Positions 1-49,848 of a stretch of 49,848 bases of DNA are shown here, piece after piece (within the stretch, counting starts at the first letter, position 1; every line of letters begins with the position of its first letter). The position numbers and the translations under genes are program-made. The DNA is taken from the IMG/VR virus record IMGVR_UViG_3300032157_000014, positions 1 to 49,848 of that record; one strand, written 5' to 3'. The stretch is from a virus. Under the pieces are notes generated by a model. The model made no database searches, was not told where the DNA came from, and saw nothing but the letters and a program-made list of their open reading frames with translations.

Positions 1-127
1 GGCGTCCTGGCGCAGCCCTGGGACGATCTTCGAGGCCACGCCTGTCTTGTTCTTCCCCATGTCGACCAGCTGCAGCTCGGGGACCTCGATGCCGGCGGCC
101 TGGTACAGCTTGCCGGTGAGGACCTCG
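1..127. repeat. Terminal direct repeat, copy 1 (matches 49722..49848); circular-closure overlap
   Basis: ggcgtcctggcgcagccctgggacgatcttcgagg...ccggtgaggacctcg occurs at both window ends. The reading frame of the flanking minus-strand ORF is continuous across the junction. Confidence 0.9.
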
Positions 128-1782
128 TTCCGCGCGGCGTCGACGCTGGCCGGGGTCTTGATGTACCACTCCTCGCCGGTGCCCTTGTTCCGGTAGGTGC
201 CCCCCGGGTTGCTGCCGCGCTGCGCGCCGACCAGGTCGAAGTCGGCGATCCGGAACTCGCCCGCGGCCGCGGCCTTCTTCGCCGCCTCCTGCTTCGCGAG
301 CTCGAGCTTGGCGAGGAACGCTTCCTTCTCGGCCGGCGCGATCTTCTCGAGCGCCTGGACGGCCGCCGGCGGCGGCTCCTTGCCGGCGAGCGCCGCCTTC
401 TTGTACTTGGAGAGCTGATCGCTGATCAGCTTCTTCGCCTTGATCACCGCGGCGTCGGCCAGGACCTGGTCCAGCTGGGCCGTAGGCTCGAGCGCCTTCA
501 GTTTGCCGGCCGCCTTCAGCTTTTTCAGCGCCTGGAACTCGTGCCCCTTCGCCGCGGCCGCGATCGCGTCGAGCTTGTCCTGGGCCGCCTTCTGCTTGGC
601 GATCTCGGCCGCCTTGGCCAGCGCCGCGGCCTTCTTCGCCGCCAGCGCCTCAGCCGCGGCTTTCGCCGCCTCGCTGGCCTCGTCGATCGCAGTGACGCGC
701 TTCATCACCACGCTGAGCGGCGTGCGGATCATGCCGCCGCTCGTGATCTTGCCGCGCTGGAAGAGCTCCATCTTCCCCTTGCCGAGCACTCCCTTCTGCC
801 GCTCGGGCGACAGCCGCTTCAGCGCATCGAGTGAGGTTTCTTTGCCAGCCTTGTCGGCGTCCGAGATCTCGTCTTCGAACGCGATCACCACGAAGGAAAG
901 CGTGTTCGGGTGCGCGGGCCAGGGCGTCTTCTCGCGCGTCGGATAGACGCCGGGCCCGAGGCCGTAGAGGTTCTGCGTGCTGAGGAGATCGCAGATGTCC
1001 GGCTCGGGGTGCGCCGGTGAGAGCAGGTAACGCCAGCCGGCGAAGCCTCGCGTCTGCGCCGCGCCCTTCATGTAGGCCTCGCCGTGCGCGCGGTTGATCT
1101 CGGTGCGGAAGAGCCGCATCGCATTGTCCATCGGCGTGCCCGGGCCCTTGAGCAGCGCCTCGCCGGTCTTCTTCGCGAGCTCGTCGGCCGCGGCCGCGCC
1201 GATCTTGTCGCGCAGCTCCTGCGGCACCGGGAGGCTCTTGCCCATGAGATCCGCGGCCGCCCTGGACGCGCTGTGTCCCTGGATTACCGCCTGCTGGATC
1301 CTGGAGGCGATCAGGTCCTTGGCGTGCTGGTCGATGCGCCAGATGCGATCGGCGAGCTGCAGGCCGTCCGCAGCGATGAACGTGCGCACGAACTGCAGCG
1401 CCTCGTCTGCGATCGCCATGCCGGCCTCGGTGGTGATCACCGCCTGCGAGGTGAGGCTGCCGGTGAGCGGCCGCACGCCGAGGTTCGCCGCCTGCACCAG
1501 GCCTCCCTGCAGGATCACGTTCTTGGCCTCGGCCAGCTGGTCCAGCACGGCGTTGACCTGGTCCAGCGCGTTCTTCATCTCCTGCAGCGCGAGGTTGCCG
1601 TCCGGGCCCGCGGCGGTGGCGATCCTGGCCGAGATCTCGGCCGCCGCCTGCTTGTAGACGCGCTCGAGGCTCGCCAGGCCCTCCTTGTCGAGCTGGGCGA
1701 CGTCCTTGTGCGCGGCGAACGTCGCCCGCCGGATCCCGGCCTGCAGGGCGGTGCGCGCCGGCTCGGCGAGCTGGATAGTCAT
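1..1782 (-). CDS. MuF-domain polyvalent head protein, N-terminal (5') part; the ORF runs off the left edge and continues 49721->47646 (about 1,285 aa in total)
   Basis: Hand translation from ATG 1780-1782, which forms an ATGA overlap with the upstream stop: MTIQLAEPARTALQAGIRRATFAAHKDVAQLDKE.... It contains ...PGTPMDNAMRLFRTEINRAHGEAYMKGA..., the Phage_Mu_F / SPP1 gp7 signature. An Ala/Lys/Glu-rich linker follows, then ...GSNPGGTYRNKGTGEEWYIKTPASVDAARNEVLTGKLYQAAGIEVPELQLVDMGKNK, running in frame to position 1. There is no stop in this frame, which explains its absence from the ORF track. Confidence 0.8.
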   Translation of the reverse strand, partial: MTIQLAEPARTALQAGIRRATFAAHKDVAQLDKEGLASLERVYKQAAAEISARIATAAGPDGNLALQEMKNALDQVNAVLDQLAEAKNVILQGGLVQAANLGVRPLTGSLTSQAVITTEAGMAIADEALQFVRTFIAADGLQLADRIWRIDQHAKDLIASRIQQAVIQGHSASRAAADLMGKSLPVPQELRDKIGAAAADELAKKTGEALLKGPGTPMDNAMRLFRTEINRAHGEAYMKGAAQTRGFAGWRYLLSPAHPEPDICDLLSTQNLYGLGPGVYPTREKTPWPAHPNTLSFVVIAFEDEISDADKAGKETSLDALKRLSPERQKGVLGKGKMELFQRGKITSGGMIRTPLSVVMKRVTAIDEASEAAKAAAEALAAKKAAALAKAAEIAKQKAAQDKLDAIAAAAKGHEFQALKKLKAAGKLKALEPTAQLDQVLADAAVIKAKKLISDQLSKYKKAALAGKEPPPAAVQALEKIAPAEKEAFLAKLELAKQEAAKKAAAAGEFRIADFDLVGAQRGSNPGGTYRNKGTGEEWYIKTPASVDAARNEVLTGKLYQAAGIEVPELQLVDMGKNKTGVASKIVPGLRQDA

Positions 1783-2168
1783 CAGGGGAAATCTGGCAGC
1801 GGCACGGTCTGTCCGGAGAGCTTGTGCGTCGAATCGCTGCAGAACTCGATGCGGCCACCGCGGACGAAAGAATGGCAGATCGAGCAGCCGAATCCGGAAG
1901 GTTCCCGGCCGGCAGCGACTTCTGCTGCGTCATAGGTACACCAGCACTCGTCGACGCCCGGCTTGAAATGCCCTGCGTAGTGTCCGGACCGGATGAGAAT
2001 GCTCGGAGAAAAGGTCGGGCTGTCGACGTTGCCGTCCCAGATCCAGCCCTTGTCGCCGGCGCCTGTCTGTCCACGAACTGCAATGCCATGGGCTTCCTCA
2101 CAGCCTGGACACCAGAACGCCAGCTGGCCGCCCTCGATCGTCCGCATCAACCTACCGAGTGCAGCCAT
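1782..2168 (-). CDS. Small Cys-rich Zn-ribbon protein (DUF6527-like), 128 aa
   Basis: This is the C-terminal, normal-composition part of track ORF 1782..3401: MAALGRLMRTIEGGQLAFWCPGCEEAHGIAV...WIWDGNVDSPTFSPSILIR...CSICHSFV. There are ATGA overlaps with the portal stop (2168) and with the MuF start (1782). Confidence 0.65.
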   Translation of the reverse strand: MAALGRLMRTIEGGQLAFWCPGCEEAHGIAVRGQTGAGDKGWIWDGNVDSPTFSPSILIRSGHYAGHFKPGVDECWCTYDAAEVAAGREPSGFGCSICHSFVRGGRIEFCSDSTHKLSGQTVPLPDFP

Positions 2169-3556
2169 CACTTGTTCTTGATCGACGTCGCGCTCTCGCC
2201 CTTGCGCGCGTTGCCTGGCGTAATGCTCACCTTGCCGGCGCCGCCCGCGGGAGTGATCGCCATGGGATCCGGATACGGATCCACGTTCTCGCGCTCCCAC
2301 TCCTGGCGCTGGCGCACGTAGGTCGCGTTGTCGCCCATCGCTTCGAACAGCATCCCGGCCGGGTATCCCAGCGCCTGCATCTTGAGCGCGAGGTCGGCGG
2401 TCTGATTCTTCGTCTCTGTCCGCCGCTCGGCGAACTCGATGCAGAAGTCCTCCGCGTCCGGGTTGATGCCCTTGAGCAGCAGCTGGAAGCGAAAGATCGC
2501 CTCGTAGGCGTAAGCCAGCGTGTCCTGGATCTCGTCGATCGAGTCGTAGTAGTCGCGCTTCATGTCCTCGAGGATGTCGCGCGCCATGTCCTCGGTGAAC
2601 CCCATGAGCCCCTTCGGAGTGCCGGATCCGGAGAAGAAGCAGTCGACCAGGTAGGCGATGTCCTTGATGTGGTCCAGGTTCGCGTCGCCGCTGACCGCGG
2701 TGACGCCGCCCTTCTTGTTCGAGTAGAAGTCGGTGGTGATCTCGTTCTGATCCTTCTCGACCTCGGCGCGGTAGGTGTCGAGCTGTTCCTTGGTCGCACC
2801 CTCGAGGATGTGGCTGAACCGAAGCGGCGCGCGCGTGCGCCGGCGGATCACCAGGTCCTGATCGGTCATTTTCAGCTTCTGCCAGCAGCTGCGGTTCGAA
2901 TCCAGGAACGGCCGGCCGAGCGATCCCAGGTCGTCGAAGTTGTCGGGGTCGAACCGGCAGACAAAGAGCTTCCACAGCGGGAACGCCGCTCGCTCGGCGC
3001 CCGTCATCACGTCGATCTGCAGGTAGGCGCGCTGAATGTCGTTGAAGCGTCCGCCCGGGTTCGTGTTCGGCTTGATCGTCTCGGAGGGCATCCGCACGGC
3101 GGCGAGGATGTCCGGTGCGCCGGAGCTCGGATTGTCCAGGACGATCTGCAGGGGCAGGTTGCCTTCCATCGCCAGGCCCTTCGCATCGCTCTTCAGCTTC
3201 TCGATGCGATTGAGCTGCAGCCGGCGGCCGAATTCGCGCCAGAGCTGCGCGACCTTCTCGTTCTCCTGGGCCTGCTTCAGGACCAGGCCGCCCTTCACGG
3301 TGTCGCGCGCGATCCTCTTGTGGATCTGCTTGACGCGGCCGTCTTCCTTGTCCATCTGCCGCACGTCGAGGATCGACTGGCGAAGCTCGGGATCCACCCA
3401 CATGAGGTCATACATCGCCTTGAGCTCGTTCTCAGGCGTGGTCCTGACGCCCTTTTCATCCGACTGCACCGGCTTCTCGTTCGGCAGCCAGGAGGCGGCG
3501 TTTGGGAACTTCCCGCGCAGGAAGGTGAAGGTGCTCTCGAGCAGGTTCATTCGCAT
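2168..3556 (-). CDS. Portal protein
   Basis: 462-aa ORF of normal composition. It lies between the large terminase and the MuF-domain gene, the canonical TerL-portal-MuF order. Confidence 0.7.
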   Translation of the reverse strand: MRMNLLESTFTFLRGKFPNAASWLPNEKPVQSDEKGVRTTPENELKAMYDLMWVDPELRQSILDVRQMDKEDGRVKQIHKRIARDTVKGGLVLKQAQENEKVAQLWREFGRRLQLNRIEKLKSDAKGLAMEGNLPLQIVLDNPSSGAPDILAAVRMPSETIKPNTNPGGRFNDIQRAYLQIDVMTGAERAAFPLWKLFVCRFDPDNFDDLGSLGRPFLDSNRSCWQKLKMTDQDLVIRRRTRAPLRFSHILEGATKEQLDTYRAEVEKDQNEITTDFYSNKKGGVTAVSGDANLDHIKDIAYLVDCFFSGSGTPKGLMGFTEDMARDILEDMKRDYYDSIDEIQDTLAYAYEAIFRFQLLLKGINPDAEDFCIEFAERRTETKNQTADLALKMQALGYPAGMLFEAMGDNATYVRQRQEWERENVDPYPDPMAITPAGGAGKVSITPGNARKGESATSIKNK

Positions 3557-3720
3557 TTCTCCTTGAGATCGAGGCGCACGATCGCGCGCCAGCCCGGGAC
3601 CATGCCGAGATCGAACAGCGCTCGGAAATGGTCCTGCTTTTCCGGAAACAGTTTCTTGAACAGCGCCCGGCGTTCCTGGGCGACGCCCGGATCGTCTTCC
3701 ACGGGGTGGCCGGAGATCAT
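3547..3720 (-). CDS. Hypothetical small protein (57 aa)
   Basis: Tail of shadow ORF 3547..4308: MISGHPVEDDPGVAQERRALFKKLFPEKQDHFRALFDLGMVPGWRAIVRLDLKEKCE. ATGA overlap with the TerL stop at 3717. Confidence 0.5.
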   Translation of the reverse strand: MISGHPVEDDPGVAQERRALFKKLFPEKQDHFRALFDLGMVPGWRAIVRLDLKEKCE

Positions 3721-5369
3721 GCCGCCGCCCTCGCCGGCAGCCGCGGCGCGACGCCGAGCAGCTGCTCCCTCGTCTGAGTGCGGTGGCTGATCACGGTCGG
3801 GATATCGAGCACCCCGCGCGTCACCAGGGCCCACACGGCCGCCATAGCGGCGTCGAAGCCGTCGTCGCCGAGCGTGGTGTTCGCCATCTTGTAGCTCGCG
3901 TAGCTGACCTTCGTGGCCTCGGCGCGGATGTTGTTCAGCTGTCGGATGAAGAGCGTCCAGGCTGACGCGTCCGGATCCAGGCCTGCGAGGGACGGCGGTA
4001 CCAGCAGGACTTTGCGGCCGGTGTCGGCCTTCAGCGCGTCGGCGCCGTCGTCGATGAAGGGGATCGCGGCCTGGGCGTTGTGGAAGATGGACCGCAGCGC
4101 GCTCGCCATGCTGTGCTTCGTCATGCCTTCGAAGCGGATCGGCGCGAAGGCCCACTCCTGCCAGGTGGTCGCGGTGCTCTGGCCCTCGCCGATCGTGCGC
4201 CGGTCGATCTGCGTGAGCCCGCGGGCGAAGAGCTTGTCGTTGACGCTGGTGAGCAGGCCGATGCCGTAGGCGTCGCCGATCGCGTAGTCGGGGTTGAAGT
4301 ACTCCCACAGCCCGACCAGGTCCGCCTCGATGATCTTCTCGTCCGTCCCGGCCGGCCAGTAGCGCACGTAGGCGAAGAACGTGAAGCCGCCGATCTGCTC
4401 AGCGACCACCAGGCAGGACTTCGAGGCGTGCAGGCTCTCGCCGTGGCCGAGGTGGTCGTAGCCGAACGAGAGCAGCCCGCGCTTCTTGTACTTGACTCCC
4501 GGCAGTGGGCCAGCCGCCGCGAGGCCTGCCTTGAGGCCCACCGCCATCGCCAGGCGTATATACCGCTCCCAGATGTGATTCTGCGAGCTCACGTTCCTGC
4601 AGAGGAACTGGCGTATGTACTCGCCCTCGGGCAGCTGCGCGCGCATGTCGAGCATGAAGGCCTCGTTGATGATGCCGAGCTCGATGCCCAGGTACACGTT
4701 CACCGTGGGCAGCAGGTGATACTGCCCGGAGTCGATCATGTGCTGCAGGGTGTCGGCGCCCTTGAAGACGCCGGTGATCCGGATCTGCGGCTTGAAGCTC
4801 GCGTCCCGCCGCACCCCCAGGCGCCGCGCCGAGCCGAGCATGGGCAGGAAGCGCGAGAGCAGCCGTTCCGCCGGCATGTCGTCGATCTCCTCGATCGACG
4901 CGTAGCTGAGCGAGTCGCCGTCGATCTGCGACATGATCCCGTAGGCCTGCGCCTTGGAGCCGTTGTAGAACTGGTAGCGCGTGTCGGTGAGCTGCTCGCG
5001 GCCGCTCTTCCAGTTCATGAAGGCCCGCAGCATCGGCGATCGCCGGATCGCATCGAGGTGGTAGTTCAGGTTCGTCTGCGCCTGCTGCTGCCGCGGCGCG
5101 ACGATCCCGACCTCCTGGTGCGCCGTCGTCGCGTTGAATTCCAGCGCGTGCAGCTCCTTCACCGCGGTCTTGCCCGTCCGCCTGCAGGAGACGTCGACCG
5201 TGTTGGGGTTGCGGTCCATCTCGATCATCTTCAGGACCTGCACCGGATCCAGCTCTACGTTGTGCACGTGCTTGTGCCAGAGGAGGTGATCCCCCAGGTA
5301 GCGGCCGATCTCGGCCTCGGCGCGGTGCGCGACCCGGGCCCGCTCGGTCCTGGAGACGCGGCTGCTCAC
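3717..5369 (-). CDS. Terminase large subunit
   Basis: 550 aa. Walker A-like VSCRRTGKTAV and Walker B-like SYASIEEIDD, with a nuclease-sized C-terminal half. Located just upstream of the portal gene. Confidence 0.8.
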   Translation of the reverse strand: MSSRVSRTERARVAHRAEAEIGRYLGDHLLWHKHVHNVELDPVQVLKMIEMDRNPNTVDVSCRRTGKTAVKELHALEFNATTAHQEVGIVAPRQQQAQTNLNYHLDAIRRSPMLRAFMNWKSGREQLTDTRYQFYNGSKAQAYGIMSQIDGDSLSYASIEEIDDMPAERLLSRFLPMLGSARRLGVRRDASFKPQIRITGVFKGADTLQHMIDSGQYHLLPTVNVYLGIELGIINEAFMLDMRAQLPEGEYIRQFLCRNVSSQNHIWERYIRLAMAVGLKAGLAAAGPLPGVKYKKRGLLSFGYDHLGHGESLHASKSCLVVAEQIGGFTFFAYVRYWPAGTDEKIIEADLVGLWEYFNPDYAIGDAYGIGLLTSVNDKLFARGLTQIDRRTIGEGQSTATTWQEWAFAPIRFEGMTKHSMASALRSIFHNAQAAIPFIDDGADALKADTGRKVLLVPPSLAGLDPDASAWTLFIRQLNNIRAEATKVSYASYKMANTTLGDDGFDAAMAAVWALVTRGVLDIPTVISHRTQTREQLLGVAPRLPARAAA

Positions 5370-7602: not shown

Positions 7603-7683
7603 TCAGGCGGCCCTCCGCCAGTAGTCCTCTGGCAGATCAACTTCGAGCCGAACGGTTCTAAGGTTGCCCAGTTCGGGGAGCCA
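7603..7683. repeat. 81-bp direct repeat copy B (functional 3' end of the serine recombinase)
   Basis: Aligns with 6764..6844: tcaggcggccctccgccagta..cctctggcag......gaacggttctaaggttgcccag...agcca. Confidence 0.8.
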
Positions 7684-9967: not shown

Positions 9968-11008
9968 CTACGCGGGGGAAGTCGGCTTGGAGGACTGCAG
10001 GCGCTTGAGCAGCTCGGTGACTGGCGTGCTCATCTTGGCGAGCGGATTTGCCCTGTCGACATCACGCACCAGCTTGCGAATGGCGACGCTGGTGTAGATC
10101 TCGGTGCTCTTCGGATCCTTGTGCCCCATGAGCTCCTGCGTCGAGCGTAGGTGGACGTCCGACTCGGTGAGCTCAGCGCCGTAAAGGTGACGCGCTGCGT
10201 GCGGGTGCAGCTGGTCGATCGGGATCCCGGCGCGGCGGCCGTACTTCCCCACCAGGTCGTTGATCGCGCGTCGATCGAGACGCCGGCGCTCGCCGCGGTA
10301 CTCTGATTTCTGCACGTTCCTATTCATCAGGCTGACGAAAAGAACGTGATCGCCACCGCTGATCTCCGTGTCGATTTCCTTCAGCGCGGGATGCTCGAGG
10401 TACACGCGCAGCATCAGATCCGCTTCCTGGGGAACCGGCACCATCCGCTCGCGATCGCCCTTCTCGATGACCTTGATGAAGATCCTCGGTCGACCTTCAA
10501 CCTTGTCCTCGATCAACGAGGATCTGTTCAGCCGCACCACGGCACTCACGCGCACACCGCAGCCGACCAGGATGGAAAGAATCGACGCGTCGCGCACACC
10601 CTCGAAGGTGTTCAGATCCGGCGCCCAGATCAGTTTTTCCGCGCTGGCCAGGCGCATCACGTGCGGCAGCCTGCGGCCGGTGCGCGGATGCTCGAGCAGC
10701 TCCGCCGGCGACGCGTCGACGTACTTCATCATCACCATCCAGCGGCCGAATTCCTTCACCGCTGACACCTGCGGCCTGCGCCCGCTGGGCGTGAGGCCTC
10801 GCTTGATCAGCCAGGGCCCGCTGAATGCCACCAGGTCCTCGAGCGTCGCGTCGCGCGGATCCCGGCCGTCCAGGAACTCGAGGAGGCGCTCGAGCGCCAG
10901 GCGGTAATTGCCGATCGTGCTCTTCGAGCGATTCTTGTTCGCGGCCTTGTAGCTCAGGAACGCAGTGACGAGCTCGACGCGGTTCATCGCGGGCTCCCCA
11001 ATCTGCAT
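9968..11008 (-). CDS. Tyrosine recombinase, XerC/XerD-like
   Basis: N-terminal SAM-like core-binding region (TIGNYRLALERLLEFL). Catalytic-domain motifs VRVSAVVRL, HPHAARHLYG and LMGHKDPKSTEIYT. An alternative start is the Met at 10987. Confidence 0.8.
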   Translation of the reverse strand: MQIGEPAMNRVELVTAFLSYKAANKNRSKSTIGNYRLALERLLEFLDGRDPRDATLEDLVAFSGPWLIKRGLTPSGRRPQVSAVKEFGRWMVMMKYVDASPAELLEHPRTGRRLPHVMRLASAEKLIWAPDLNTFEGVRDASILSILVGCGVRVSAVVRLNRSSLIEDKVEGRPRIFIKVIEKGDRERMVPVPQEADLMLRVYLEHPALKEIDTEISGGDHVLFVSLMNRNVQKSEYRGERRRLDRRAINDLVGKYGRRAGIPIDQLHPHAARHLYGAELTESDVHLRSTQELMGHKDPKSTEIYTSVAIRKLVRDVDRANPLAKMSTPVTELLKRLQSSKPTSPA

Positions 11009-19171: not shown

Positions 19172-19584
19172 TCGTTGAAATGCGCGAACAGCAGGGTGGC
19201 GATCTTCTCGGTCTTCGCAGGCGTGAACACTGTCCGCTGCTCACCGTCGATCAGGACCAGGCGCGCGTCCGCGGTGAATGCGGCGATGAAATCTTCAACC
19301 GTGTCAGCCTTGAGCCGTTTGGCCGGCGACCGCTTCGCCTTGCCGCCCTTCGCCTTCTTCGCCTTTCTGGCCACGGGTGCGCTGTCGGCCTGCAGCTTCG
19401 TGATGTCCTGCCCGGGCAGATAGACGATCCCGTTGCGGTTGCCTTCGACCTTCACCTTGCCGGATTCCTTCAGCTTTCGTACCACCTGCGAAATGAACGC
19501 GCACTTCACCGCTTTGCCGAGCGGAGTCATGCGCGTCGGCCCGTTGTCCGTGAGGTGGACGATAGTTTTGTCTGCATGGCTCAT
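19168..19584 (-). CDS. Hypothetical DNA-binding-like protein with a Lys-rich linker (138 aa)
   Basis: MSHADKTIVHLTDNGPTRMTPLGKAVKCAFISQVVRKLKESGKVKVEG...ARKAKKAKGGKAKRSPAKR.... ATGA overlaps at both ends. Confidence 0.5.
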   Translation of the reverse strand: MSHADKTIVHLTDNGPTRMTPLGKAVKCAFISQVVRKLKESGKVKVEGNRNGIVYLPGQDITKLQADSAPVARKAKKAKGGKAKRSPAKRLKADTVEDFIAAFTADARLVLIDGEQRTVFTPAKTEKIATLLFAHFNE

Positions 19585-21341
19585 TGCGTTTTCTCCAGGA
19601 AGAGTTCCGGCCGCGCGATCACGTGGCCGGGTTTTGGGTAGTCGATGAAGCCGAGCGAGCGCAGCCGGCCGAGGTTGTTCTGATAGCCCGAGCTCGTGGG
19701 CGAGACGTCGCCCGCATCCGCTAGGTCCTCCTTGCTGATGCTGTCCGGGTAGATCTGGATCAGCGCCCTCAAGATCAGCCACAACGGACGGGGCAGCTTC
19801 GTCTCGAGGGCTCGGTGCAGGTCCTCGGTGCTCGGGGGCCGCTCGGGGGCCTGGGCGGCAGCGTGGCCGGCTTCGGTCAGGTGGACCATCCCGGGGCGCG
19901 GATAGTCGATCAGGCTCAGGGAGCGCAGCGCCCCGAGGTTGTTCTGGTACCCCGAACTGGACGGGCTCTGGTCGGCCAGGAGGGCCACCTGGGTCTTGTC
20001 GGCCGGGTCGGTCGGCCGGATCGTGGCCAGCCAGGCCAGGGCGTCCAGGATGCGCTGCATGGAGCCCGAAACGCGGGGGTCACCGGACGCCGGCCGGGCG
20101 GCCACGCGCGGCGCTGGCGGCCTTGGCGCGGCCGGGCCGCCGCTGTCCGTCCTTGTACGTAAAAAACGGACAGGGACGGACACGGTGCCGGGCTTGACTG
20201 CATTCAGCCAGGAGCTCCGGAACGCAGCTACGGGCCCCGCCACTGCCGTCTCGATCGCGGTGTCGATCCCGGCGAGCAGCCTGTCCAGGTGCGGCTTGAC
20301 GGCGTCGGAGCAGGCCTGGTAGCCCTCGCGGTAACCGACGCGTCGCTCTTGGTCCAGGACCGCCTCGGAGTGCCCGCCATCTGGGTGTTTTGCGCCCAGA
20401 TCTGCGTTGGTTCGACGCAGATCTGCGTTCTCCCGACGCAGCCGGGCGAGCTCGCCTTCTTCCGCCTCAGCCTGGGCCGGCAGGTCGGAGAGCTTGTCCA
20501 GGATCGCCTTGAGCTTCGCCGGCGGCGGCGACTGGCTCACCTTGCCGCCGTGCCCGGGCTCGAGGTGCGTGGTCTGGACCGCACCCATCTTGATCAGCGT
20601 CACCTGCTTGGAGATCGCTGGCCCGAACGCATAGAAGCCGCCCTCGTCGAGGGACCGCAGCGAATGCTGCTGCTCTCGGGTATTGAAGCCGAGCTCGTCG
20701 GCCGCGCGCTTCATGTCGACGTCGAGCGCCGATCGGCCGATCAGCTTGTTGTTGCACTCGGCCGCGGCGTCCTTGGAGAGCTTCGAGATCCGCTGCGTTG
20801 CGAGCGCCCCGCAGAATCCGCGCTTCCTGCCGCGTGTCATCAGGTCGATCACCGCGGCCGCGCTCTCGGCCTGGTCCTTCTCCGGGCAGAACTGGTGCGC
20901 CTCGTCGATGCAGACGAACAGCGGCCGCCACAGCGATCGCGGCGCCTCCATCAGCGCCTCGAGGAACGAGCGCACGAACTTCGCGCGATCGTGTTTCTTC
21001 ATTTCCGACAGGTCGATGATCACCGAGAACCCATGCTCGAGGATCCGCCTCGCCAGGAGAGGCGCGCTGCGCACGTCGACCTTGCAGTCGCCGCCGGCGC
21101 CGGCGCTGGCCAGCACGAAGGGGAACTTCTCGCGCAGGGTGAAGAATTCGCCGTCCAGGTCGATCACCACCAGCGGGACCAGGCCGAAGAGCTGCTCGAG
21201 CAGCCGGCGCAGCGCGTAGGATTTCCCGCCGCCGCTGTTCGCCTGGACCAGGAGCCGCGTGGTGAGCAGCCGTTCGACGTCCATCTGCACCGGCTTCCTG
21301 CCCCACTCGGCGCTGGTGCCGAGGTCGATGTGCTTGGTCAT
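19581..21341 (-). CDS. P-loop ATPase (HerA/FtsK/DUF87-like) fused to two tandem winged-helix-like repeats
   Basis: Walker A VQANSGGGKSY and Walker B LFVCIDEAHQF. A coiled-coil region follows. The C-terminus carries two similar units, ...SSSGYQNNLGALRSLSLIDYPRPGMVHLTEAG... and ...TSSGYQNNLGRLRSLGFIDYPKPGHVIARPELF. Confidence 0.6.
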   Translation of the reverse strand: MTKHIDLGTSAEWGRKPVQMDVERLLTTRLLVQANSGGGKSYALRRLLEQLFGLVPLVVIDLDGEFFTLREKFPFVLASAGAGGDCKVDVRSAPLLARRILEHGFSVIIDLSEMKKHDRAKFVRSFLEALMEAPRSLWRPLFVCIDEAHQFCPEKDQAESAAAVIDLMTRGRKRGFCGALATQRISKLSKDAAAECNNKLIGRSALDVDMKRAADELGFNTREQQHSLRSLDEGGFYAFGPAISKQVTLIKMGAVQTTHLEPGHGGKVSQSPPPAKLKAILDKLSDLPAQAEAEEGELARLRRENADLRRTNADLGAKHPDGGHSEAVLDQERRVGYREGYQACSDAVKPHLDRLLAGIDTAIETAVAGPVAAFRSSWLNAVKPGTVSVPVRFLRTRTDSGGPAAPRPPAPRVAARPASGDPRVSGSMQRILDALAWLATIRPTDPADKTQVALLADQSPSSSGYQNNLGALRSLSLIDYPRPGMVHLTEAGHAAAQAPERPPSTEDLHRALETKLPRPLWLILRALIQIYPDSISKEDLADAGDVSPTSSGYQNNLGRLRSLGFIDYPKPGHVIARPELFLEKTQ

Positions 21342-43141: not shown

Positions 43142-43993
43142 CTACTGCGCGCCTCCGGAACGCTGCTTGAGCTCCTCGGCGATCGCCGCGAGCAGGCTCT
43201 TGCGCGGCCCGCCGAAGCCCAGGACCGGGTCGCGTTTCTTCTCGAGCTCCTCGAGCTGGGTGAGGTCGGCGTCCGAGAGCGTGCTGAAATGCTCCCGGAC
43301 GTCGCCCACCTTCTTCTTCAGGATCTCGGCCAGCTCGGCCGTGCGCTTCGCAGCGTCGGCTTCCGTATCGTTGCCGCCACCGCCTTCCAGCGTGTCGTTG
43401 CTCCCGGCCCCGTCCAGGGTGTCGTTGCCGGTCGCGCCGTCCAGGGTGTCGTCGGTGCCGGCCCCGGCGAGCGTGTCGTTGCCGACCGCGCCGGCCTGCG
43501 TGTCGCTGGGAGCCGCGCCGGCCTGCGTGTCGTTGCCAGCTGCTCCGGCGTTGGCCTTCGCCTCTCGAGCCGCCCAATCGCGGGCGAGCGCTTCGGCAGC
43601 CGCCTTTTCCGATGCCAATTCCTCCTCCGACAGGCCGGCCCGCCGGATCTTCTCGGCAGCGATCACCCCGAGGAGGTCCTTGCGAGGCTTCGCTGCGGCC
43701 GATTCCAGCTCCTCGATGAGGTTCAGGTCGTCGGTGGACGGGTACGGCAGCTTGACCGCCATCTCTTCCTGCGGCAGCGCCAGGAGGGCCGCCAGGAAGG
43801 CGCGGCGCTCGGTCGCGGGGTCTGCCGCCACCAGGATCTCGACCGGCTCCTCGGGGCGCAGGTAGGCCGGCACATCGTGCCAGTTGAAGGTGCGCGACTC
43901 GCCGGGCATGACGTAGTTGGCGCCCACGGAGATCGGCGTCTTCCCGTTCTCGTTGTTGATCGTGATCGGCTTGTGATCGCGGCTTTTTTCCAT
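43142..43993 (-). CDS. Virion-module protein with RTX-like GGxGNDTLx nonapeptide repeats (possible head decoration protein)
   Basis: 283 aa. The central region reads AGNDTQAGAAPSDTQAGAVGNDTLAGAGTDDTLDGATGNDTLDGAGSNDTLEGGGGNDT. The gene is immediately downstream of the capsid gene and its terminator. Confidence 0.55.
   Translation of the reverse strand: MEKSRDHKPITINNENGKTPISVGANYVMPGESRTFNWHDVPAYLRPEEPVEILVAADPATERRAFLAALLALPQEEMAVKLPYPSTDDLNLIEELESAAAKPRKDLLGVIAAEKIRRAGLSEEELASEKAAAEALARDWAAREAKANAGAAGNDTQAGAAPSDTQAGAVGNDTLAGAGTDDTLDGATGNDTLDGAGSNDTLEGGGGNDTEADAAKRTAELAEILKKKVGDVREHFSTLSDADLTQLEELEKKRDPVLGFGGPRKSLLAAIAEELKQRSGGAQ
43364..43552. repeat. Approximately 27-bp tandem coding repeats (about 7 units)
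   Basis: ccgtccagggtgtcgttgcc-type units repeat with a 27-nt period. They encode the nonapeptide repeats. Confidence 0.7.
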
Positions 43994-44074: not shown

Positions 44075-46729
44075 TTACGGCGCCGGCCGGGCGATCCGTG
44101 CAGCGGCGCTGTAGAGGACCATCGAGGTCAAGCCCGCCTTCAGCTGCGTCGGCGTGTGGACCACGATGAACTGGTCGCCGTAGGCTTCCTTCTTGCCCGT
44201 GAAGCGCCCGTTGCTGTCCTTCTGGTTCTCGAGCTGGTTCAGCATCCAGCCCTTCATCATGCGGAAGCGGACCGTGCCGCGTTCGCCGATGACGATCCGC
44301 TTGTCGCCGGCCTGCAGGCCCGGCGCGAAGGAGCGGTACGTCGGGACGTCCTTGATGCGGCCGACGTTGCCGTCCGCCCCGAGATCCGTCCCGGTGCGCT
44401 TGAAGTTCGCGCCGAACTGACGGGCCTGGGCGATCAGGTCGCGCACCACGCCCGACATCGTCGCGAGGGAGGCCACGTGCTGCCGGTCCTCCACCACCGT
44501 CCGGCGCTGGCCGAAGTTGTTGAGGAAGGTGTCCCACTTCTGATCCGTCTCCAGCTCGCCCTCGTCCATGTCGAACTTCTTGACGTTGGTGGTGTAGCTG
44601 TAGCTGATCGTGTAGGCCGTGCCGTCCGCCGGCGTCTGGATCGCGCCCGCCTGGTTCACGAGGTAGATCTCGCCCAGGTTCTTGTCGAGGACGTAGTAGG
44701 TGCCGGAGGCCTGCGAGCCGGTGCCGTCGTATTCCTCGCGCGCCACCGAGTTGTAGGTCACCGTGATCGGGTTCACCGTCGACCCGACTTGCGAGCCAGC
44801 CAGGTCGTAGACCTTGCGCGGCGTGACCACCGGCCACTGCGCGAGCACGAACACCTTGTTGGTGCCGTTCGACTGCGGCTCGAGGTCCTCGGCGACCACC
44901 GCGGTCGCGGCGTATTCGTCGGAGGCGTTCAGGTGCTCGTTGTAGATCACCTGCTCGGTGTCCTCGCCGATGATCCGGACCGCGTTGGCCGCGTTCTCGG
45001 CGACGATGTCGAAGTTCAGCTGCCCGTTGCCGACCAGGTAGCGGAGTTCATCCGACACCTCGAAGGCGATCTTCTGCGGGATCGGCCGGGCGTCTTCCGA
45101 CGTCTGGATCACGCCAGCGCGCGAGATCGCCTGCCCCTGGTACTTGCGCGTGCCTGAGCGTCCGGCAGCGGTCGTGTCGCGGTAGCTGTACGGGATCTGC
45201 ATCACCGCGGCGAAGATGTGCGTGCCGACATCGCACAGCGGCAGGCCGGTGAGTTGATACAGCGACTCGCGCAGCACCGTGCGCTCGAAACTCGCCGGAA
45301 TCGCGACATCGGCGACGACGCCGTCGCCGCCGGAGAGCTTCATCGCCTGGTACTCCCTGTGCAGCCGGTGGGCGTTCGCCTTGTCGAACTGCGCCAGGGC
45401 CTCTTCCACCAGCGCCTTGTTGACGCCGATCTCACGGCCCTCGGAGAGGCGATAGCGCTTCTCGGGCGACATCCTGGTGTAGAGCCGCTTGTCGACCTGC
45501 TCCTGCAGCGCCTTGATCTCGTTCGAGGCTTCGACGGTGATGATCGGCGATCCCTCGACGTGGTAGCCCAGGCCGGCCAGCTGGCGCGCGGCCACGAGCT
45601 TGTTGCCCGACGCGATCTGCGTCGCGGCCAGGCGCTTGACGACGTCTTCGGTCGTGTCGGCGGTGACCAGGTCCTCGACCGCGAGGATCAGCTCCTTGCG
45701 GTCCTCTTCGGGGATGCCGGTGACGGCGTTGATCGTGTCGGCGAGCAGCTTGCGCCGCGCCGTGGTCGTTTCGGCGAGTTGCTTTGCCGCTTCGCCCCGG
45801 GCCTTTTCGGTGGCCTCCAGGAGCTTCTTGACGCCGGCCTCGTCCAGGCCAGCGGTGCCCATGCTGAGGTTCAGCACGATCGGCCCGTTCGGGTTGGCGA
45901 CGAGCGCCTCGGCGAGCTGCTTGCCGGCGCCTTCGAAGCCGGCGATGACGCCTTCTGCGACCGCCTTGTCGGTGATCTTGGCCAGTGCCGTCTCGGCCTG
46001 GGCGCTGAGCAGCTTGACGTTCGCTTCGCTCAACTTATGGGTGTCGGAGAGCGTCTTCACGAGACGCGCGATCAGTTCTTTCCACATGGCATGTACCTCT
46101 TGAAGTAGATGGGATTGCAGATCCGGGTGGATCAGCGTGGGCGGCGCGTCGTCGGACTGCGCCAGCTTGATGCGGGACGGATCCACCGGATCGAGCCCCT
46201 TGATAACGGGTCGATTGGTCAGCCCGGCGCCGAGGAGCGTGGTGCCGTGCTTCTGTCGGTGTTCGTTGTCCTGGAAATTCTCGTGATAGTCGGCGGAGAA
46301 GTACCGAAAGCCACGGTTCACCACCGCATCCGCGCCGAAGGGCGTCCACTCCAGGAGCGCCCTCAGCTTGCCGTCTTTCACCTGGAGCTTCACCACCTTC
46401 GCCGCAGCGCCGTCATCCGGCTTGTGCGCGACGTCGATGAAGATGTCCTGGCCATACGCCTTCTTTTCGAAGTTCTCGACGATCTGGAGCAGCATGTGCT
46501 GCGTGATCTCGAAGTTGCCGTACCGCGGGTCCCAGAATTTCCCCGTCCGGGTAATCGTTTCCCACGTCTGACTGCCCGCTTCCACGGACAGATTCTTCAG
46601 TTCAGAGACAAACCTCCGCACCCCGTCCGGGGGCGGTGCTTCCAGCTGGATGCGCCGCGGCGCCTCCGCCAGGGCCGCGGTAGCGGCCATGGCGGTGCAG
46701 ACAGCCAGGGCGAGGTGCGTGCGGCGCAT
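44075..46729 (-). CDS. Mu-I-like prohead protease/scaffold fused to the major capsid protein (single 884-aa ORF)
   Basis: Real part of track ORF 44075..47239, starting MRRTHLALAV.... The N-terminus ...GKFWDPRYGNFEITQHMLLQIVENFEKKAYGQDIFIDVAHKPDDGAAAKVVKLQVKDGKLRALLEWTPFGADAVVNRGFRYFSADY fits the Mu-like prophage protein I pattern. A helical scaffold-like middle is followed by a C-terminal domain of roughly 350-400 aa, the size of a capsid protein. Confidence 0.6.
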   Translation of the reverse strand: MRRTHLALAVCTAMAATAALAEAPRRIQLEAPPPDGVRRFVSELKNLSVEAGSQTWETITRTGKFWDPRYGNFEITQHMLLQIVENFEKKAYGQDIFIDVAHKPDDGAAAKVVKLQVKDGKLRALLEWTPFGADAVVNRGFRYFSADYHENFQDNEHRQKHGTTLLGAGLTNRPVIKGLDPVDPSRIKLAQSDDAPPTLIHPDLQSHLLQEVHAMWKELIARLVKTLSDTHKLSEANVKLLSAQAETALAKITDKAVAEGVIAGFEGAGKQLAEALVANPNGPIVLNLSMGTAGLDEAGVKKLLEATEKARGEAAKQLAETTTARRKLLADTINAVTGIPEEDRKELILAVEDLVTADTTEDVVKRLAATQIASGNKLVAARQLAGLGYHVEGSPIITVEASNEIKALQEQVDKRLYTRMSPEKRYRLSEGREIGVNKALVEEALAQFDKANAHRLHREYQAMKLSGGDGVVADVAIPASFERTVLRESLYQLTGLPLCDVGTHIFAAVMQIPYSYRDTTAAGRSGTRKYQGQAISRAGVIQTSEDARPIPQKIAFEVSDELRYLVGNGQLNFDIVAENAANAVRIIGEDTEQVIYNEHLNASDEYAATAVVAEDLEPQSNGTNKVFVLAQWPVVTPRKVYDLAGSQVGSTVNPITVTYNSVAREEYDGTGSQASGTYYVLDKNLGEIYLVNQAGAIQTPADGTAYTISYSYTTNVKKFDMDEGELETDQKWDTFLNNFGQRRTVVEDRQHVASLATMSGVVRDLIAQARQFGANFKRTGTDLGADGNVGRIKDVPTYRSFAPGLQAGDKRIVIGERGTVRFRMMKGWMLNQLENQKDSNGRFTGKKEAYGDQFIVVHTPTQLKAGLTSMVLYSAAARIARPAP

Positions 46730-47302: not shown

Positions 47303-47659
47303 CTACTCGGCGAAGCCGGTGAGGTCCAGCGACAGGATCTCGCGCCAGCAGGCCTGACGATCGAACGGCTTGCCTTCCTCGCTCGCCCGCCATTGGAGCC
47401 ATGCGTTGTAGTCGGCGAACAATTGCTCTCCCTCGAACGCAATCCTGACCTTCGAATTTCCGATCGCCCACCCGTCCTCCGTTTCGTGGGCGAAGCCCTT
47501 GACGTAGTGGAAGGGATTCGACGTCGCGGTCGGCCACCCGAGATCGGCAAAGATCATCCCATTGCCAAGGCGAAAGAGTTCCGCAACCGGGCGCGCACCG
47601 CCCTCGTCAGTCTCAATGACGATCGGAATGCCTAGATTCGGGGCATCACACAGATCCAC
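47303..47659 (-). CDS. Small acidic protein (118 aa) immediately downstream of the MuF polyvalent gene; candidate immunity or partner protein
   Basis: MDLCDAPNLGIPIVIETDEGGARPVAELFRLGNGMIFADLGWP.... Its start overlaps the last 14 nt of the polyvalent ORF. Confidence 0.55.
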   Translation of the reverse strand: MDLCDAPNLGIPIVIETDEGGARPVAELFRLGNGMIFADLGWPTATSNPFHYVKGFAHETEDGWAIGNSKVRIAFEGEQLFADYNAWLQWRASEEGKPFDRQACWREILSLDLTGFAE

Positions 47660-49848
47660 GGATTTTGATCACGTCCTCGAGCTTGCGGCCGTCCGGCCAC
47701 GAGGTGTAGCCGTGCTTTTTGAATACCTCGAGCAGCCGCTGATAGTCGCCGGAGTCGACGATTATATGCTCGAGGTCGTCGAAGATTGAGAGGCCGTTCT
47801 TGAGGATCGTTTCGTTCGAACGCGACCGCACGGCCGCGCGCCATTCCTCGATGCCGGTCTTCCGGTGGCGCATGACATGGCCTTCGGTGACGCGGCCGAA
47901 GTTGTCGCCGTCGTAGCTGATCGCGTCCAGACGCGCCACCAGCCGCGGCTTCCACACGAACCCGGGCTCGCCGCCGGCGCTCTTGCGGCCGCGCAGCCTG
48001 GTGAAGAGGTAGCTCGCGCCGCCGGTGTCGAGATCCGCGGTCGGCGACATGCCGCCGAGCGGCAGGCCGCGGCGCAGCTTGTCGACCGTCGGCGCGAGCT
48101 GCCCGCCCGAGTTCAGGATCGACTCGATCGAGGTGATCATGCTGCCCTGCGTGATCCGGTGGTGCAGCACGTAGTCTTTCTGGAAGCGCTCCCACTCCTT
48201 GCCCTGCAGATCCGGCCGGAAAAGATGCCGGCGCCCCTGGCCGAAGGCCTGGTAGATGCCGTCCGGCTTGTACGCCGGCGAGTTCTCGATATCCACGCCC
48301 GTCTTCTCGGTGAGCCAGGCTTTCATCGCGTCGACGCGCTCCTGCTGTGCTGCCTTGCCGGCGGCGGCTTCCAGGAAGTCGGCGAACCCGTCGCGCCGGT
48401 GGTAGGCGATCTGCCGCAGGTACAGCTCCTCCCGATCGAGCGTGGCGGCGCGCTGCGCGTTCACGCCGATCGAGCCGATCGCGTCGAAGAGCTTGCGCGC
48501 GTCGGTCACCTCGCCGCCGGCGACCTGGATCTGCACCTGGTTGCGCAGCGCGAAGGGAATGTCCGATGCATCCGGCCAGTACCGGACGCGCGCGCCGTTG
48601 ATCTCGGTTTCGTAGAAGTAGCCGGTGGAGTAGTTGGTTTCCTTCGTCTCGGTGGCGAAGCCGCGCTCGATTCGCTTTCGCTCGAAGGCGCCGTCGCGCC
48701 GCTGGAATGCGATCGCACCAGGCTGCGGCTTTGGCGGCGGTGGCGTGTAGCGCTTGAGCAAATCTCCGCTGGGCGCCTTCCACGTCGCGACCTTGCCGAC
48801 ATTGCCCTTGATCGCCGCCTCGAGCGCCTTCAGCCAGGGATCGTAGTGGTCGAAGAACTTCGCGGCGTAGGCCGATTTTTCCGCGACCATGCCTTTGTTG
48901 ATCTTCGTCAGTGCCGCGCGCGCCGACACCACGCGCTCGAGGTCCTTGTCGCGGATCTTCTCGCCTTTGCCCGCGAGCGTTGCCAGGCCCTTGATCGCCT
49001 CGACGATCTTGTCATGCACGCCGGCATCGTCGAATTTCACGTTGGCGCCGGAGGCCTGCAGGATCCTGCCCAGCTTCCCGGAGGCCTCGCCGGTGACCTT
49101 GAACTGTCCGACTGTGCGCGCGCTGCCGTCCGAGGCCTTCTCGAGCCAGACAAGCACGCTGTGGTCCTCGATCTCGCCCTTGTCGCTCGGGATCATGTAC
49201 CCGTTGAGCCGGCTCTCCCGGATCAGCTTGTGCTCGGCCGCGGTGATCCGCGCAGCTGAGTCCGCCGGCGCCGGCACTGGCGCCTCGCTCGGCTTCACGC
49301 GCTTCAGGATGTCCTGCTTCCGTGCGATCAGGGTATCGGCCAGGGCCTCATTCTCGCGCGCGTCCAGGGGCCCGTGCTGCTTGACCAGGCGGCGGATCTC
49401 CTCATCGTCCAGGGCCTGCAGGCGCGCGGCGGAGGCCTCGAGCTGGGCCGGGGTGATCCGCTTGAAGACGGCGGCCGTCTGCGGGTTGTTGGAGGCATTG
49501 CGCATGCTCTCGAGCTCCTGGACGCTCGGGCCCCACTGCGCGCCCTTGAGGCTGCCCTGGGCCCGGTAGCGCAGGCCTCCGCCGGTGTCCACCCGGAACG
49601 CCCGACCTTCCCGGATGAGGAGGTTGTCGAAGCTGGCGCCGGCGACGTCCCAATTCGCCAGCCAGGCGTCGATCGCGAAGCCGTCGACAGCCCCAGGCAC
49701 CTTGCCGGCGCGCAGCGCGGCGGCGTCCTGGCGCAGCCCTGGGACGATCTTCGAGGCCACGCCTGTCTTGTTCTTCCCCATGTCGACCAGCTGCAGCTCG
49801 GGGACCTCGATGCCGGCGGCCTGGTACAGCTTGCCGGTGAGGACCTCG
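47646..49848 (-). CDS. MuF-domain polyvalent head protein, C-terminal (3') part
   Basis: Track ORF 47646..49781 (711 aa), whose Met is internal. The frame stays open upstream to the window end and matches positions 1..127 and onward. It contains DGFAIDAWLANWDVAGASFDNLLIREGRAFRVDTGGGL and a long C-terminal region I could not assign. Confidence 0.8.
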   Translation of the reverse strand, partial: EVLTGKLYQAAGIEVPELQLVDMGKNKTGVASKIVPGLRQDAAALRAGKVPGAVDGFAIDAWLANWDVAGASFDNLLIREGRAFRVDTGGGLRYRAQGSLKGAQWGPSVQELESMRNASNNPQTAAVFKRITPAQLEASAARLQALDDEEIRRLVKQHGPLDARENEALADTLIARKQDILKRVKPSEAPVPAPADSAARITAAEHKLIRESRLNGYMIPSDKGEIEDHSVLVWLEKASDGSARTVGQFKVTGEASGKLGRILQASGANVKFDDAGVHDKIVEAIKGLATLAGKGEKIRDKDLERVVSARAALTKINKGMVAEKSAYAAKFFDHYDPWLKALEAAIKGNVGKVATWKAPSGDLLKRYTPPPPKPQPGAIAFQRRDGAFERKRIERGFATETKETNYSTGYFYETEINGARVRYWPDASDIPFALRNQVQIQVAGGEVTDARKLFDAIGSIGVNAQRAATLDREELYLRQIAYHRRDGFADFLEAAAGKAAQQERVDAMKAWLTEKTGVDIENSPAYKPDGIYQAFGQGRRHLFRPDLQGKEWERFQKDYVLHHRITQGSMITSIESILNSGGQLAPTVDKLRRGLPLGGMSPTADLDTGGASYLFTRLRGRKSAGGEPGFVWKPRLVARLDAISYDGDNFGRVTEGHVMRHRKTGIEEWRAAVRSRSNETILKNGLSIFDDLEHIIVDSGDYQRLLEVFKKHGYTSWPDGRKLEDVIKIRGSV
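49722..49848. repeat. Terminal direct repeat, copy 2
   Basis: Matches 1..127. Confidence 0.9.

Follow-up and report, generated by a model that had tools for sequence, protein, structure and literature searches.

Capsid-packaged effectors are the first phage proteins that a host cell meets; T4 Alt is such an enzyme, packaged in the capsid and injected with the DNA. To our knowledge, few of these effectors are of known chemistry, e.g., T4 Alt, ADP-ribosyltransferases (ARTs), (p)ppApp synthetases, and nucleases. The closest described systems to the locus reported here are the MuF polymorphic toxins (PMC5576092) and the polyvalent proteins (PMC5512222), in which N-terminal head domains carry effectors into the capsid, from which they are delivered with the DNA. 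A small, immunity-like open reading frame (ORF) lies downstream beside about 89% of the MuF toxins (PMC5576092). Here, we describe a locus of this kind in the IMG/VR virus record IMGVR_UViG_3300032157_000014, analysed from position 1 to position 49,848 (this whole stretch of DNA is called the window below). The locus codes for a 1,285-aa protein made of a MuF-like N-terminus, a helical linker, and a cargo cassette (a kinase-fold domain followed by modules that we name A to D), and for a 118-aa protein directly downstream. We propose, with moderate confidence, that the large protein is a capsid-internal, polyvalent, two-enzyme effector of a temperate tailed phage, whose C-terminal block is restrained by the small protein.

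Like the MuF toxins and the polyvalent proteins, the 1,285-aa protein has a minor-head N-terminus encoded in the packaging/head module of a temperate phage, a long C-terminal extension with predicted enzymatic cargo, and an ORF of less than 150 aa directly downstream; moreover, its relatives join the same cassette to NUDIX, Zeta-toxin, intein, and ART domains. It differs from them by an N-terminus that the Pfam MuF family (PF04233) does not detect, and by a cargo, the kinase with modules A-D, that has no entry in Pfam 2025, NCBIfam, PADLOC, or the annotated PHROGs; the first three of these gave, for the whole cargo, a sub-threshold HipA_C match and nothing else. What is new in this cargo, as far as its sequence tells, is an unannotated CtkA/HipA-like kinase, an A-C-D block that ends in an enzyme-like domain, and a dedicated and rapidly diverging partner. 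A preliminary description of the window, made from its letters, had spoken of a candidate for an undescribed system. The class itself is known and published (PMC5576092, PMC5512222); in the libraries and papers that we searched, there is no account of the cargo cassette or of its partner, and it is to them that the claim applies.

The gene is interrupted by the ends of the contig. These ends carry an exact direct repeat, so the contig is circular and the two pieces of the ORF may be joined.

1..127 = 49722-49848, no strand: terminal direct repeat, an exact 127-bp match
128..1782, minus strand: 5' part of the large ORF, residues 1-551 and 2 nt of codon 552; its start codon (ATG, 1782-1780) shares bases with the TGA that ends the upstream DUF6527 gene
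47646..49848, minus strand: 3' part of the large ORF, residues 552-1285 and the stop codon (47646-47648)

Joined on the minus strand (1782..128, then 49848..47646), the two pieces give 3,858 nt, i.e., 1,285 codons and a terminal stop, with no internal stop and neither a frameshift nor a stop at the junction. Seven homologues, found on other contigs, are full-length (52-67% identity), and over 70 additional clusters align with residues ~400-1285. The large ORF is thus a real gene, and the single protein split by the contig edge that had been proposed is borne out by the repeat, by the joined reading frame, and by the full-length homologues. The motifs that had been read by eye are also all present, at residues 223-237 (RLFRTEINRAHGEAY), 523-544 (GSNPGG...YIKTP), 552-569 (NEVLTGKLYQAAGIEVPE), 612-630 (DAWLANWDVAGASFDNLLI), and 637-644 (RVDTGGGL).

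The part of the protein that precedes the cargo consists of two regions.

793..1782, minus strand: minor-head, or MuF-like, domain, residues 1-330 (phrog_1657, E 6e-33; motifs RLFRTEINRAHGEAY at residues 223-237 and HPNTLS at residues 291-296)
253..705, minus strand: Ala/Lys/Glu-rich helical linker, residues 360-510, delimited by composition and holding the conserved motif YKKAALAGKEPPP

Residues 22-301 match phrog_1657, a "head morphogenesis" family, and the N-terminus also matches the minor-head families phrog_4728 (E 5e-13), phrog_7625, and phrog_115 (E 3e-10), as well as phrog_16625, the MuF part of Bxa ART (E 1.7e-3). From these PHROG matches, the FRTE...HPN motif region, and the gene order beside the portal, the N-terminal domain is MuF-like in a broad sense. 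It is to this extent that the earlier assignment to MuF/SPP1 gp7 holds, PF04233 itself being undetected here; more distant cassette proteins do carry PF04233. The linker has the composition first noted for it, with 33% Ala, 18% Lys, and 9% Glu over residues 360-510. A motif within it, YKKAxLAGKxPxPxxxxAFxxL, is common to relatives ending in A-C-D and to relatives ending in an ART, is doubled in some of them (e.g., P0083), and might be a docking or processing element. The linker region (query residues 370-495) aligns by BLAST to the ART-type proteins.

The linker is followed by the kinase-fold domain, which spans the contig ends.

128..240, minus strand: kinase-fold domain, first part, residues 515-551, with the Gly-rich loop G523-G527 and the ATP-binding Lys K542
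49284..49848, minus strand: kinase-fold domain, second part, residues 552-740, with helix-C E553, D612, catalytic-loop D619 and N627, metal-binding D639, and the C-terminal helical sub-domain

The AlphaFold2 model of this domain has a predicted local distance difference test score (pLDDT) of 95.5 and a predicted template-modelling score (pTM) of 0.92. Foldseek returned 324 matches in the PDB at E ≤ 1e-3, and the best 50 of these 324 are all proteins of the protein-kinase-like (PKL) fold, namely kinases and one lanthipeptide synthetase. The top match is Helicobacter pylori CtkA (E 5.5e-7 to 1e-5, template-modelling (TM) score 0.59-0.65), followed by RIPK2, APH(3'), HipT, and HipA; HipT (8EZS/8EZR) and HipA (4PU4), ranked behind CtkA, reach E values of about 1e-4 and TM scores of 0.41-0.48. 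The bilobal kinase fold is accompanied by the full PKL catalytic set (Gly loop, Lys, helix-C Glu, Asp, Asn, and metal Asp). Indeed, all 81 sequences compared keep G523, G527, K542, E553, D612, D619, N627, and D639, the residues of D-x-W-L-x-N-x-D...D-N and V-D-x-G-G show no variation in the same set, and the conserved positions map to the expected elements of the model (Gly loop, strand 3, helix C, catalytic loop, and DxG position). The Pfam family HipA_C (PF07804) is matched below threshold in eight of eight close homologues (14-18 bits for a cut-off of 30.5 bits, E 0.002-0.04), over profile positions 15-71 of 213, i.e., the Gly-loop/Lys/helix-C region. A profile of the whole protein family run against the PDB sequences gave no kinase match, just low-complexity noise. 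We predict that residues 515-740 form an active atypical kinase, CtkA/HipA-like and not specifically a lipid kinase. The lipid/atypical-kinase-like motif of the preliminary description is accordingly upheld as a kinase, by the fold and by the invariant residues; the resemblance to PI3/PI4-kinases is not specific.

A PI3K/PI4K or lipid-kinase identity was rejected, with no Pfam PI3_PI4_kinase match and no such enzyme in the best 50 of the 324 fold matches.

We compared this domain with the known kinases that it most resembles. It is linked to HipA and HipT by the recurrent weak HipA_C match, by structural matches that rank behind CtkA, and by a similar (I/L)-x-N-x-D...N catalytic loop. It differs from them in that the HipA_C score stays far from the cut-off, in that there is neither a HipA N-terminal domain nor a HipB/HipS partner, and in that its catalytic loop bears an insertion (D619-x7-N627). 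CtkA, the best structural match (PDB 3AKJ/3AKK/3AKL), is likewise a compact atypical Ser/Thr-kinase fold; its gene lies on a mobile element, and the protein is transferred to a second cell, as the cargo would be here. Identity to CtkA is 14-15%, and the PDB profile search does not find it. Moreover, CtkA is a stand-alone protein that acts on human cells, whereas the present domain is one part of a phage head protein. CtkA is carried by the tfs3 integrative and conjugative element and needs the type IV secretion system of this element (PMC5536186). Iyer et al. reported a further kinase in polyvalent proteins, mainly those of Verrucomicrobia-Chlamydia and Bacteroidetes, in which the whole C-terminal sub-domain is missing and a conserved His...Asp comes with an insert (PMC5512222). 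The domain studied here departs from this published description, as it keeps a helical C-lobe (H156-229 of the model) and has no invariant His in its catalytic loop.

The kinase could also act on a small molecule, such as a nucleotide second messenger, an antibiotic-like compound, or a cell-wall precursor, in an anti-defence or metabolic role. Foldseek indeed matches APH(3'), N-acetylhexosamine kinase, homoserine kinase, and CcrZ as well, the domain is compact and without a typical activation segment, and related polyvalent proteins have Zeta-toxin sugar-nucleotide kinases and NUDIX domains. Nevertheless, CtkA and then HipA/HipT are clearly better matches than the small-molecule kinases, whose TM scores are about 0.33-0.40, and we consider such a substrate improbable.

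After the kinase, some 500 residues had been left as unassignable. They resolve into four conserved modules, the last of which is the more novel part of the protein. We delimited these modules with local hidden Markov models (HMMs), and took their secondary structure from DSSP of the model of residues 745-1285 (pLDDT 94.7, pTM 0.89).

49032..49250, minus strand: module A, residues 752-824, a small alpha+beta domain (DSSP), found by its local HMM in nearly all cassette proteins
48798..49025, minus strand: module B, residues 827-902, a three-helix unit, also in kinase+ART relatives and absent from some cassettes
48285..48719, minus strand: module C, residues 929-1073, long beta-hairpins and then helices (DSSP, local HMM)
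47649..48284, minus strand: module D, residues 1074-1285, an enzyme-like alpha/beta domain (column counts; 1,789 clusters)

Module D has 16 invariant residues, of which the charged ones are R1144, D1157, R1169, R1191, D1193, D1200, E1231, D1271, and R1273. H1115 (48/55) and Y1165 (51/55) are near-invariant, E1231 being found in 55/55. Pfam, run on 33 members of module D, gave no family even at E ≤ 10, and the module D profile against the PDB sequences gave low-complexity noise only. Against BFVD, the model of residues 745-1285 matched uncharacterised giant-virus and phage proteins only, the best relative match being a 170-aa Tupanvirus protein (TM 0.66 relative to the target).

One may ask whether module D is a very divergent H-Y-E ART, PARP/DarT-like, which would make the cassette a kinase coupled to an NAD-dependent modifier. 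By eye, LHHRIT...SILNSGGQLAP, GGASYLFTR, and SNETILK resemble LWHGS...GILSQGLRIAP, GKGIYFAD, and YNEYIVY of PARP1, in the same order and on predicted beta-alpha-beta elements. Module D also stands where sister proteins have an Alt/VIP2-type ART, after the shared module B, and the kinase repeatedly co-occurs with the NAD/ADP-ribose enzymes ART, NUDIX, and DRAT. On the other hand, there is no ART in the 50 best PDB Foldseek matches, despite the quality of the model, and none among the Pfam matches of the 33 members at the relaxed threshold given above. The comparison by hhalign with the sister ARTs gives a probability of 0.65%; with DarT and PARP (seeds verified against the PDB), it is low-powered and uninformative, true ART pairs also scoring below 4%. 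Finally, H1115 is kept in no more than 48 of 55 sequences, and Y1165 is lost in the actinomycete branch. We give this reading of module D a low probability.

Readings of module D as a PD-(D/E)xK nuclease, a Pol-beta nucleotidyltransferase, a macro domain, or an R-S-E enzyme were dropped by eye, for misfits of spacing or secondary structure.

Among 1.84 billion representatives, the module D profile matches 1,789 clusters (made at 50% identity) at E ≤ 1e-3, a number that falls to 425 at E ≤ 1e-30, and the match lies nearly always at the extreme C-terminus of proteins of 1,000-2,700 aa. Among the 150 best representatives, most full-length proteins have the order kinase-A-(B)-C-D, and a few are A-C-D without the kinase; the complete cassette is present in 40 of 48 IMG/VR loci. 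Longer relatives add to a Pfam-detectable MuF domain either an intein, a DUF559 nuclease, and NUDIX, or a Zeta-toxin, and are thus true polyvalent proteins. In one of them (P0215, 2,685 aa), MuF is followed by an intein (Pretoxin-HINT / Intein_splicing) enclosing a DUF559/restriction endonuclease domain, then by NUDIX, and then by kinase-A-B-C-D. Sister proteins have the order MuF-linker-kinase-B and end in an Alt/VIP2-type ART (PF03496/PF01129) in place of A/C/D; judging by these architectures, the ART and the A-C-D block are swappable warheads. In other relatives, the kinase is fused to NUDIX or DRAT, or is duplicated.

None of 50,697 cultured phage records contains the full cassette. The kinase domain is present in 20 cultured phages, in proteins labelled "ADP-ribosyltransferase" or "hypothetical" and with no mention of a kinase in the annotation. 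These phages include Pseudomonas phages Dolphis (gp117), Jeremy, and Touem01, Aeromonas phage ST4, Yersinia phage fHe-Yen8-01, Escherichia phage ECML-606-1, and Gordonia phage Forza (gp78), with kinase identities of 38-46% in the phages of Gram-negative hosts and 34-37% in the actinobacterial phages. Dolphis gp117, which shares this domain with the 1,285-aa protein as do about 20 other cultured phages, is a MuF-ART fusion, as is gp16 of Stenotrophomonas phage AXL1; these fusions end in a recognisable ART, while the present protein ends in A-C-D instead. Conversely, gp15 of Pseudanabaena phage Pan1 (ON968452), the only cultured phage in the collection with these modules, has A-C-D (module D, E 7e-63) without the kinase domain. 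Its annotation reads "head morphogenesis protein" and nothing more, and that of gp16, which follows it, "hypothetical protein".

Matches in genomes come from Bordetella, Verrucomicrobiota, Desulfobacteraceae, Endozoicomonas, Geminisphaera, and Methyloversatilis. In Streptomyces/Kitasatospora plasmids, the parts of the cassette are on adjacent genes, without phage head genes. The first gene codes for an 890-aa protein with C-terminal kinase-like motifs (GGTY..KWLFK..TEAAAS..SWLIGEHDGHKDNWL..IDRGQAF), the second for a 745-764-aa protein ending in B-C-D (module D, E 1e-23), and the third is an ORF of 153-167 aa. Since they are fused in phages and adjacent in plasmids, the kinase and A-C-D should work together.

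In two of these plasmids, NZ_CP107915 of Streptomyces (L026) and pKP058 of Kitasatospora (L027), a DUF4417 gene lies upstream of the split locus and a gene of the ADP-ribosylglycohydrolase family ~4-5 kb downstream of it. The two loci are syntenic, so the ADP-ribosylglycohydrolase neighbour is not independent evidence for a link with ADP-ribose.

The same comparisons bear on the view that the 1,285-aa protein is an ordinary structural or morphogenetic head protein, with additional domains that would serve as scaffolding or decoration, have no activity, and never reach the host. It is encoded in the head module, and the databases label its relatives "head morphogenesis protein". However, the catalytic residues of the kinase and the 16 residues of module D are invariant across deep divergence, the plasmid cassettes are devoid of any head domain, and a dedicated small partner gene travels with the cassette. 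We regard this explanation as extremely unlikely.

The preliminary description had mentioned a downstream ORF of 118 aa. It is present, and is a conserved partner of the large gene.

47303..47659, minus strand: 118-aa partner ORF, GTG start, overlapping the stop of the large ORF by 14 nt

The public gene call (P0258) begins at an internal ATG and gives 84 aa; the GTG at 47659 is the likelier start because the 34 upstream residues are conserved in homologues. These homologues overlap the end of the large gene or sit within a few dozen nucleotides downstream of it. They occupy this slot in five of the five metagenomic loci inspected (L001, L002, L004, L005, and L006), in phages with different portal types, in 9/16 genome loci, and in 38/55 IMG/VR loci; after iteration, a homologue is found in 46 of 72 loci. 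None of the 1,831 other ORFs of 70-250 aa in the same loci matches the partner. Pan1 gp16, which comes after the kinase-less MuF-A-C-D protein gp15, is also a homologue (E 2e-9). Pfam, NCBIfam, and PADLOC gave no match for the 118-aa ORF. The ORFs downstream of the ART-ending relatives are unrelated to the partner, which therefore tracks the A-C-D warhead and not the head domain or the kinase. From these comparisons, the 118-aa ORF is a conserved and fast-evolving partner, confined to the slot after the cassette, and its position and co-variation make it most likely a candidate cognate inhibitor or immunity protein of A-C-D. In several of the loci with no detectable homologue, other conserved families of small ORFs occupy the slot. 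By eye, these other families have a common C-terminal motif, acidic-x5-W-x2-(W/F).

Such a pair recalls the MuF polymorphic toxins of Jamet et al. (2017), in which case the cargo would inhibit growth and favour lysogens in competition, and the 118-aa protein would be a true immunity protein expressed by the prophage. The phage is temperate, the small ORF is directly downstream as in 89% of MuF toxins (PMC5576092), the warhead (ART or A-C-D) and the downstream ORF swap together, and the partner is hypervariable. HipA-type kinases are, moreover, well established to arrest growth. Yet the gene and its partner lie in a late head operon, with no sign of a separate expression in the lysogen, and the same cassette occurs in plasmids without phage head genes. 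We therefore hold this version to be rather unlikely, bearing in mind that sequence alone does not separate it from a host-takeover function and that the two readings are not exclusive.

The occurrence of the cassette in Proteobacteria, Verrucomicrobiota, Desulfobacteraceae, a cyanophage, and actinomycete plasmids also allows a wider proposal, which we make tentatively. The kinase, A-(B)-C-D, and the small ORF would possibly be an undescribed three-part effector system of mobile elements, in which an enzyme of new fold, cooperating with an atypical CtkA/HipA-like kinase and restrained by a cognate, fast-evolving inhibitor, may be delivered by phage capsids or by plasmids.

For the phage of the window, we favour the two-enzyme effector proposed at the outset, which might operate as follows. 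By analogy with the biology of SPP1 gp7 and phage Mu gpF, the MuF-like N-terminus would place a few copies of the protein inside the procapsid, at or near the portal, with the long helical linker tethering a cargo cassette of ~780 residues. The 1,285-aa head protein probably enters the host with the DNA, and the cargo, leaving the capsid in this way, would act in the newly infected cell. There, the kinase would most likely phosphorylate one or several host proteins on Ser/Thr, as do HipA, CtkA, and T7 Gp0.7. Module D, a predicted second enzyme that A and C always precede, would act on a phosphate-rich substrate, which may be a nucleotide, an NAD-derived compound, or a nucleic acid. The product of the translationally coupled 118-aa ORF would be the cognate binding partner of the A-C-D block, and would most likely prevent the effector from acting in the cell that produces the phage or in the lysogen. 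The temperate lifestyle fits the published pattern of the MuF toxins (PMC5576092).

Several results speak against this proposal. The role of capsid anchor is drawn from PHROG matches, one motif, and gene order. Indeed, PF04233 has no match at E ≤ 1 in the 1,285-aa protein and none at E ≤ 10 in its seven closest homologues, and a local HMM built from PF04233-type N-termini does not match the 1,285-aa protein either. The kinase also resembles, at lower TM scores, small-molecule kinases (APH(3'), NahK), so that a non-protein substrate is possible. It is from its conservation pattern alone that module D looks like an enzyme, and Foldseek with residues 745-1285 found nothing significant in the PDB (best E 0.12, TM under 0.12). 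Lastly, 26 of the 72 loci have no detectable homologue of the partner ORF, and the 118-aa protein could instead be a chaperone or a packaging adaptor.

A large and conserved cargo cassette has thus been hidden under the annotations "head morphogenesis protein" and "hypothetical". The kinase domain was overlooked in at least 20 cultured phages (of Pseudomonas, Aeromonas, Yersinia, Escherichia, and Gordonia), where it is directly testable, and the family of module D, which matches no solved structure and no Pfam family, comes with a dedicated partner. Should both the kinase and module D be active on host targets, they would represent a new injected activity, serving host takeover, toxicity, or anti-defence, and a new toxin-inhibitor pair as well.

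The window as a whole is a complete temperate siphovirus-type genome of ~49.7 kb with 65% G+C, and looks like an entire, circularly assembled phage genome; genes that span contig ends, as here, escape gene callers. Its other genes include those for a tape-measure protein, a J-like tail fibre, a primase, an amidase, a serine recombinase, and a tyrosine integrase. The phage is considered temperate because it carries two integrases, the large serine recombinase (7603-9273, minus strand; phrog_95, E 5.5e-93) and the tyrosine integrase (9968-11008, minus strand; phrog_1, E 1e-24). When 20 kb of the window were compared with the cultured phages by megablast, no match was returned, i.e., no close cultured relative. 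On the minus strand, the genes follow each other in the order terminase large subunit (TerL), portal, DUF6527, 1,285-aa gene, 118-aa ORF, and prohead protease ORF.

3717..5369, minus strand: terminase large subunit (phrog_2, E 8e-6)
2168..3556, minus strand: portal protein (Portal_T4, E 1.7e-6; phrog_104, phrog_19480)
1785..2138, minus strand: small Cys-rich DUF6527 protein, between the portal and the large ORF (PF20137, E 1.2e-8; phrog_3362, E 4e-30)
44078..46702, minus strand: downstream head-module ORF of ~875 aa with an N-terminal Mu-like prohead protease domain (PF10123, E 3.5e-9; phrog_328)

In the metagenomic loci L001 and L002, a small ORF of 71-95 aa directly before the portal gene takes the place of the DUF6527 gene, and ORFs of 879-880 aa with the same PF10123 match come after the cassette. 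Past its protease domain, the remainder of the 44078-46702 ORF could carry scaffold or capsid functions. Far from the packaging module, an ORF of 586 aa (19581-21341, minus strand) has a partial match, over its residues 27-232, to the terminase-large-subunit family phrog_2666 (E 2.5e-17); it could be a second nuclease/ATPase-like gene or reflect a mis-named family. Finally, a 283-aa protein of the head module (43142-43993, minus strand) contains RTX calcium-binding nonapeptide repeats (HemolysinCabind, E 1.3e-7), which are unusual in a phage head operon.

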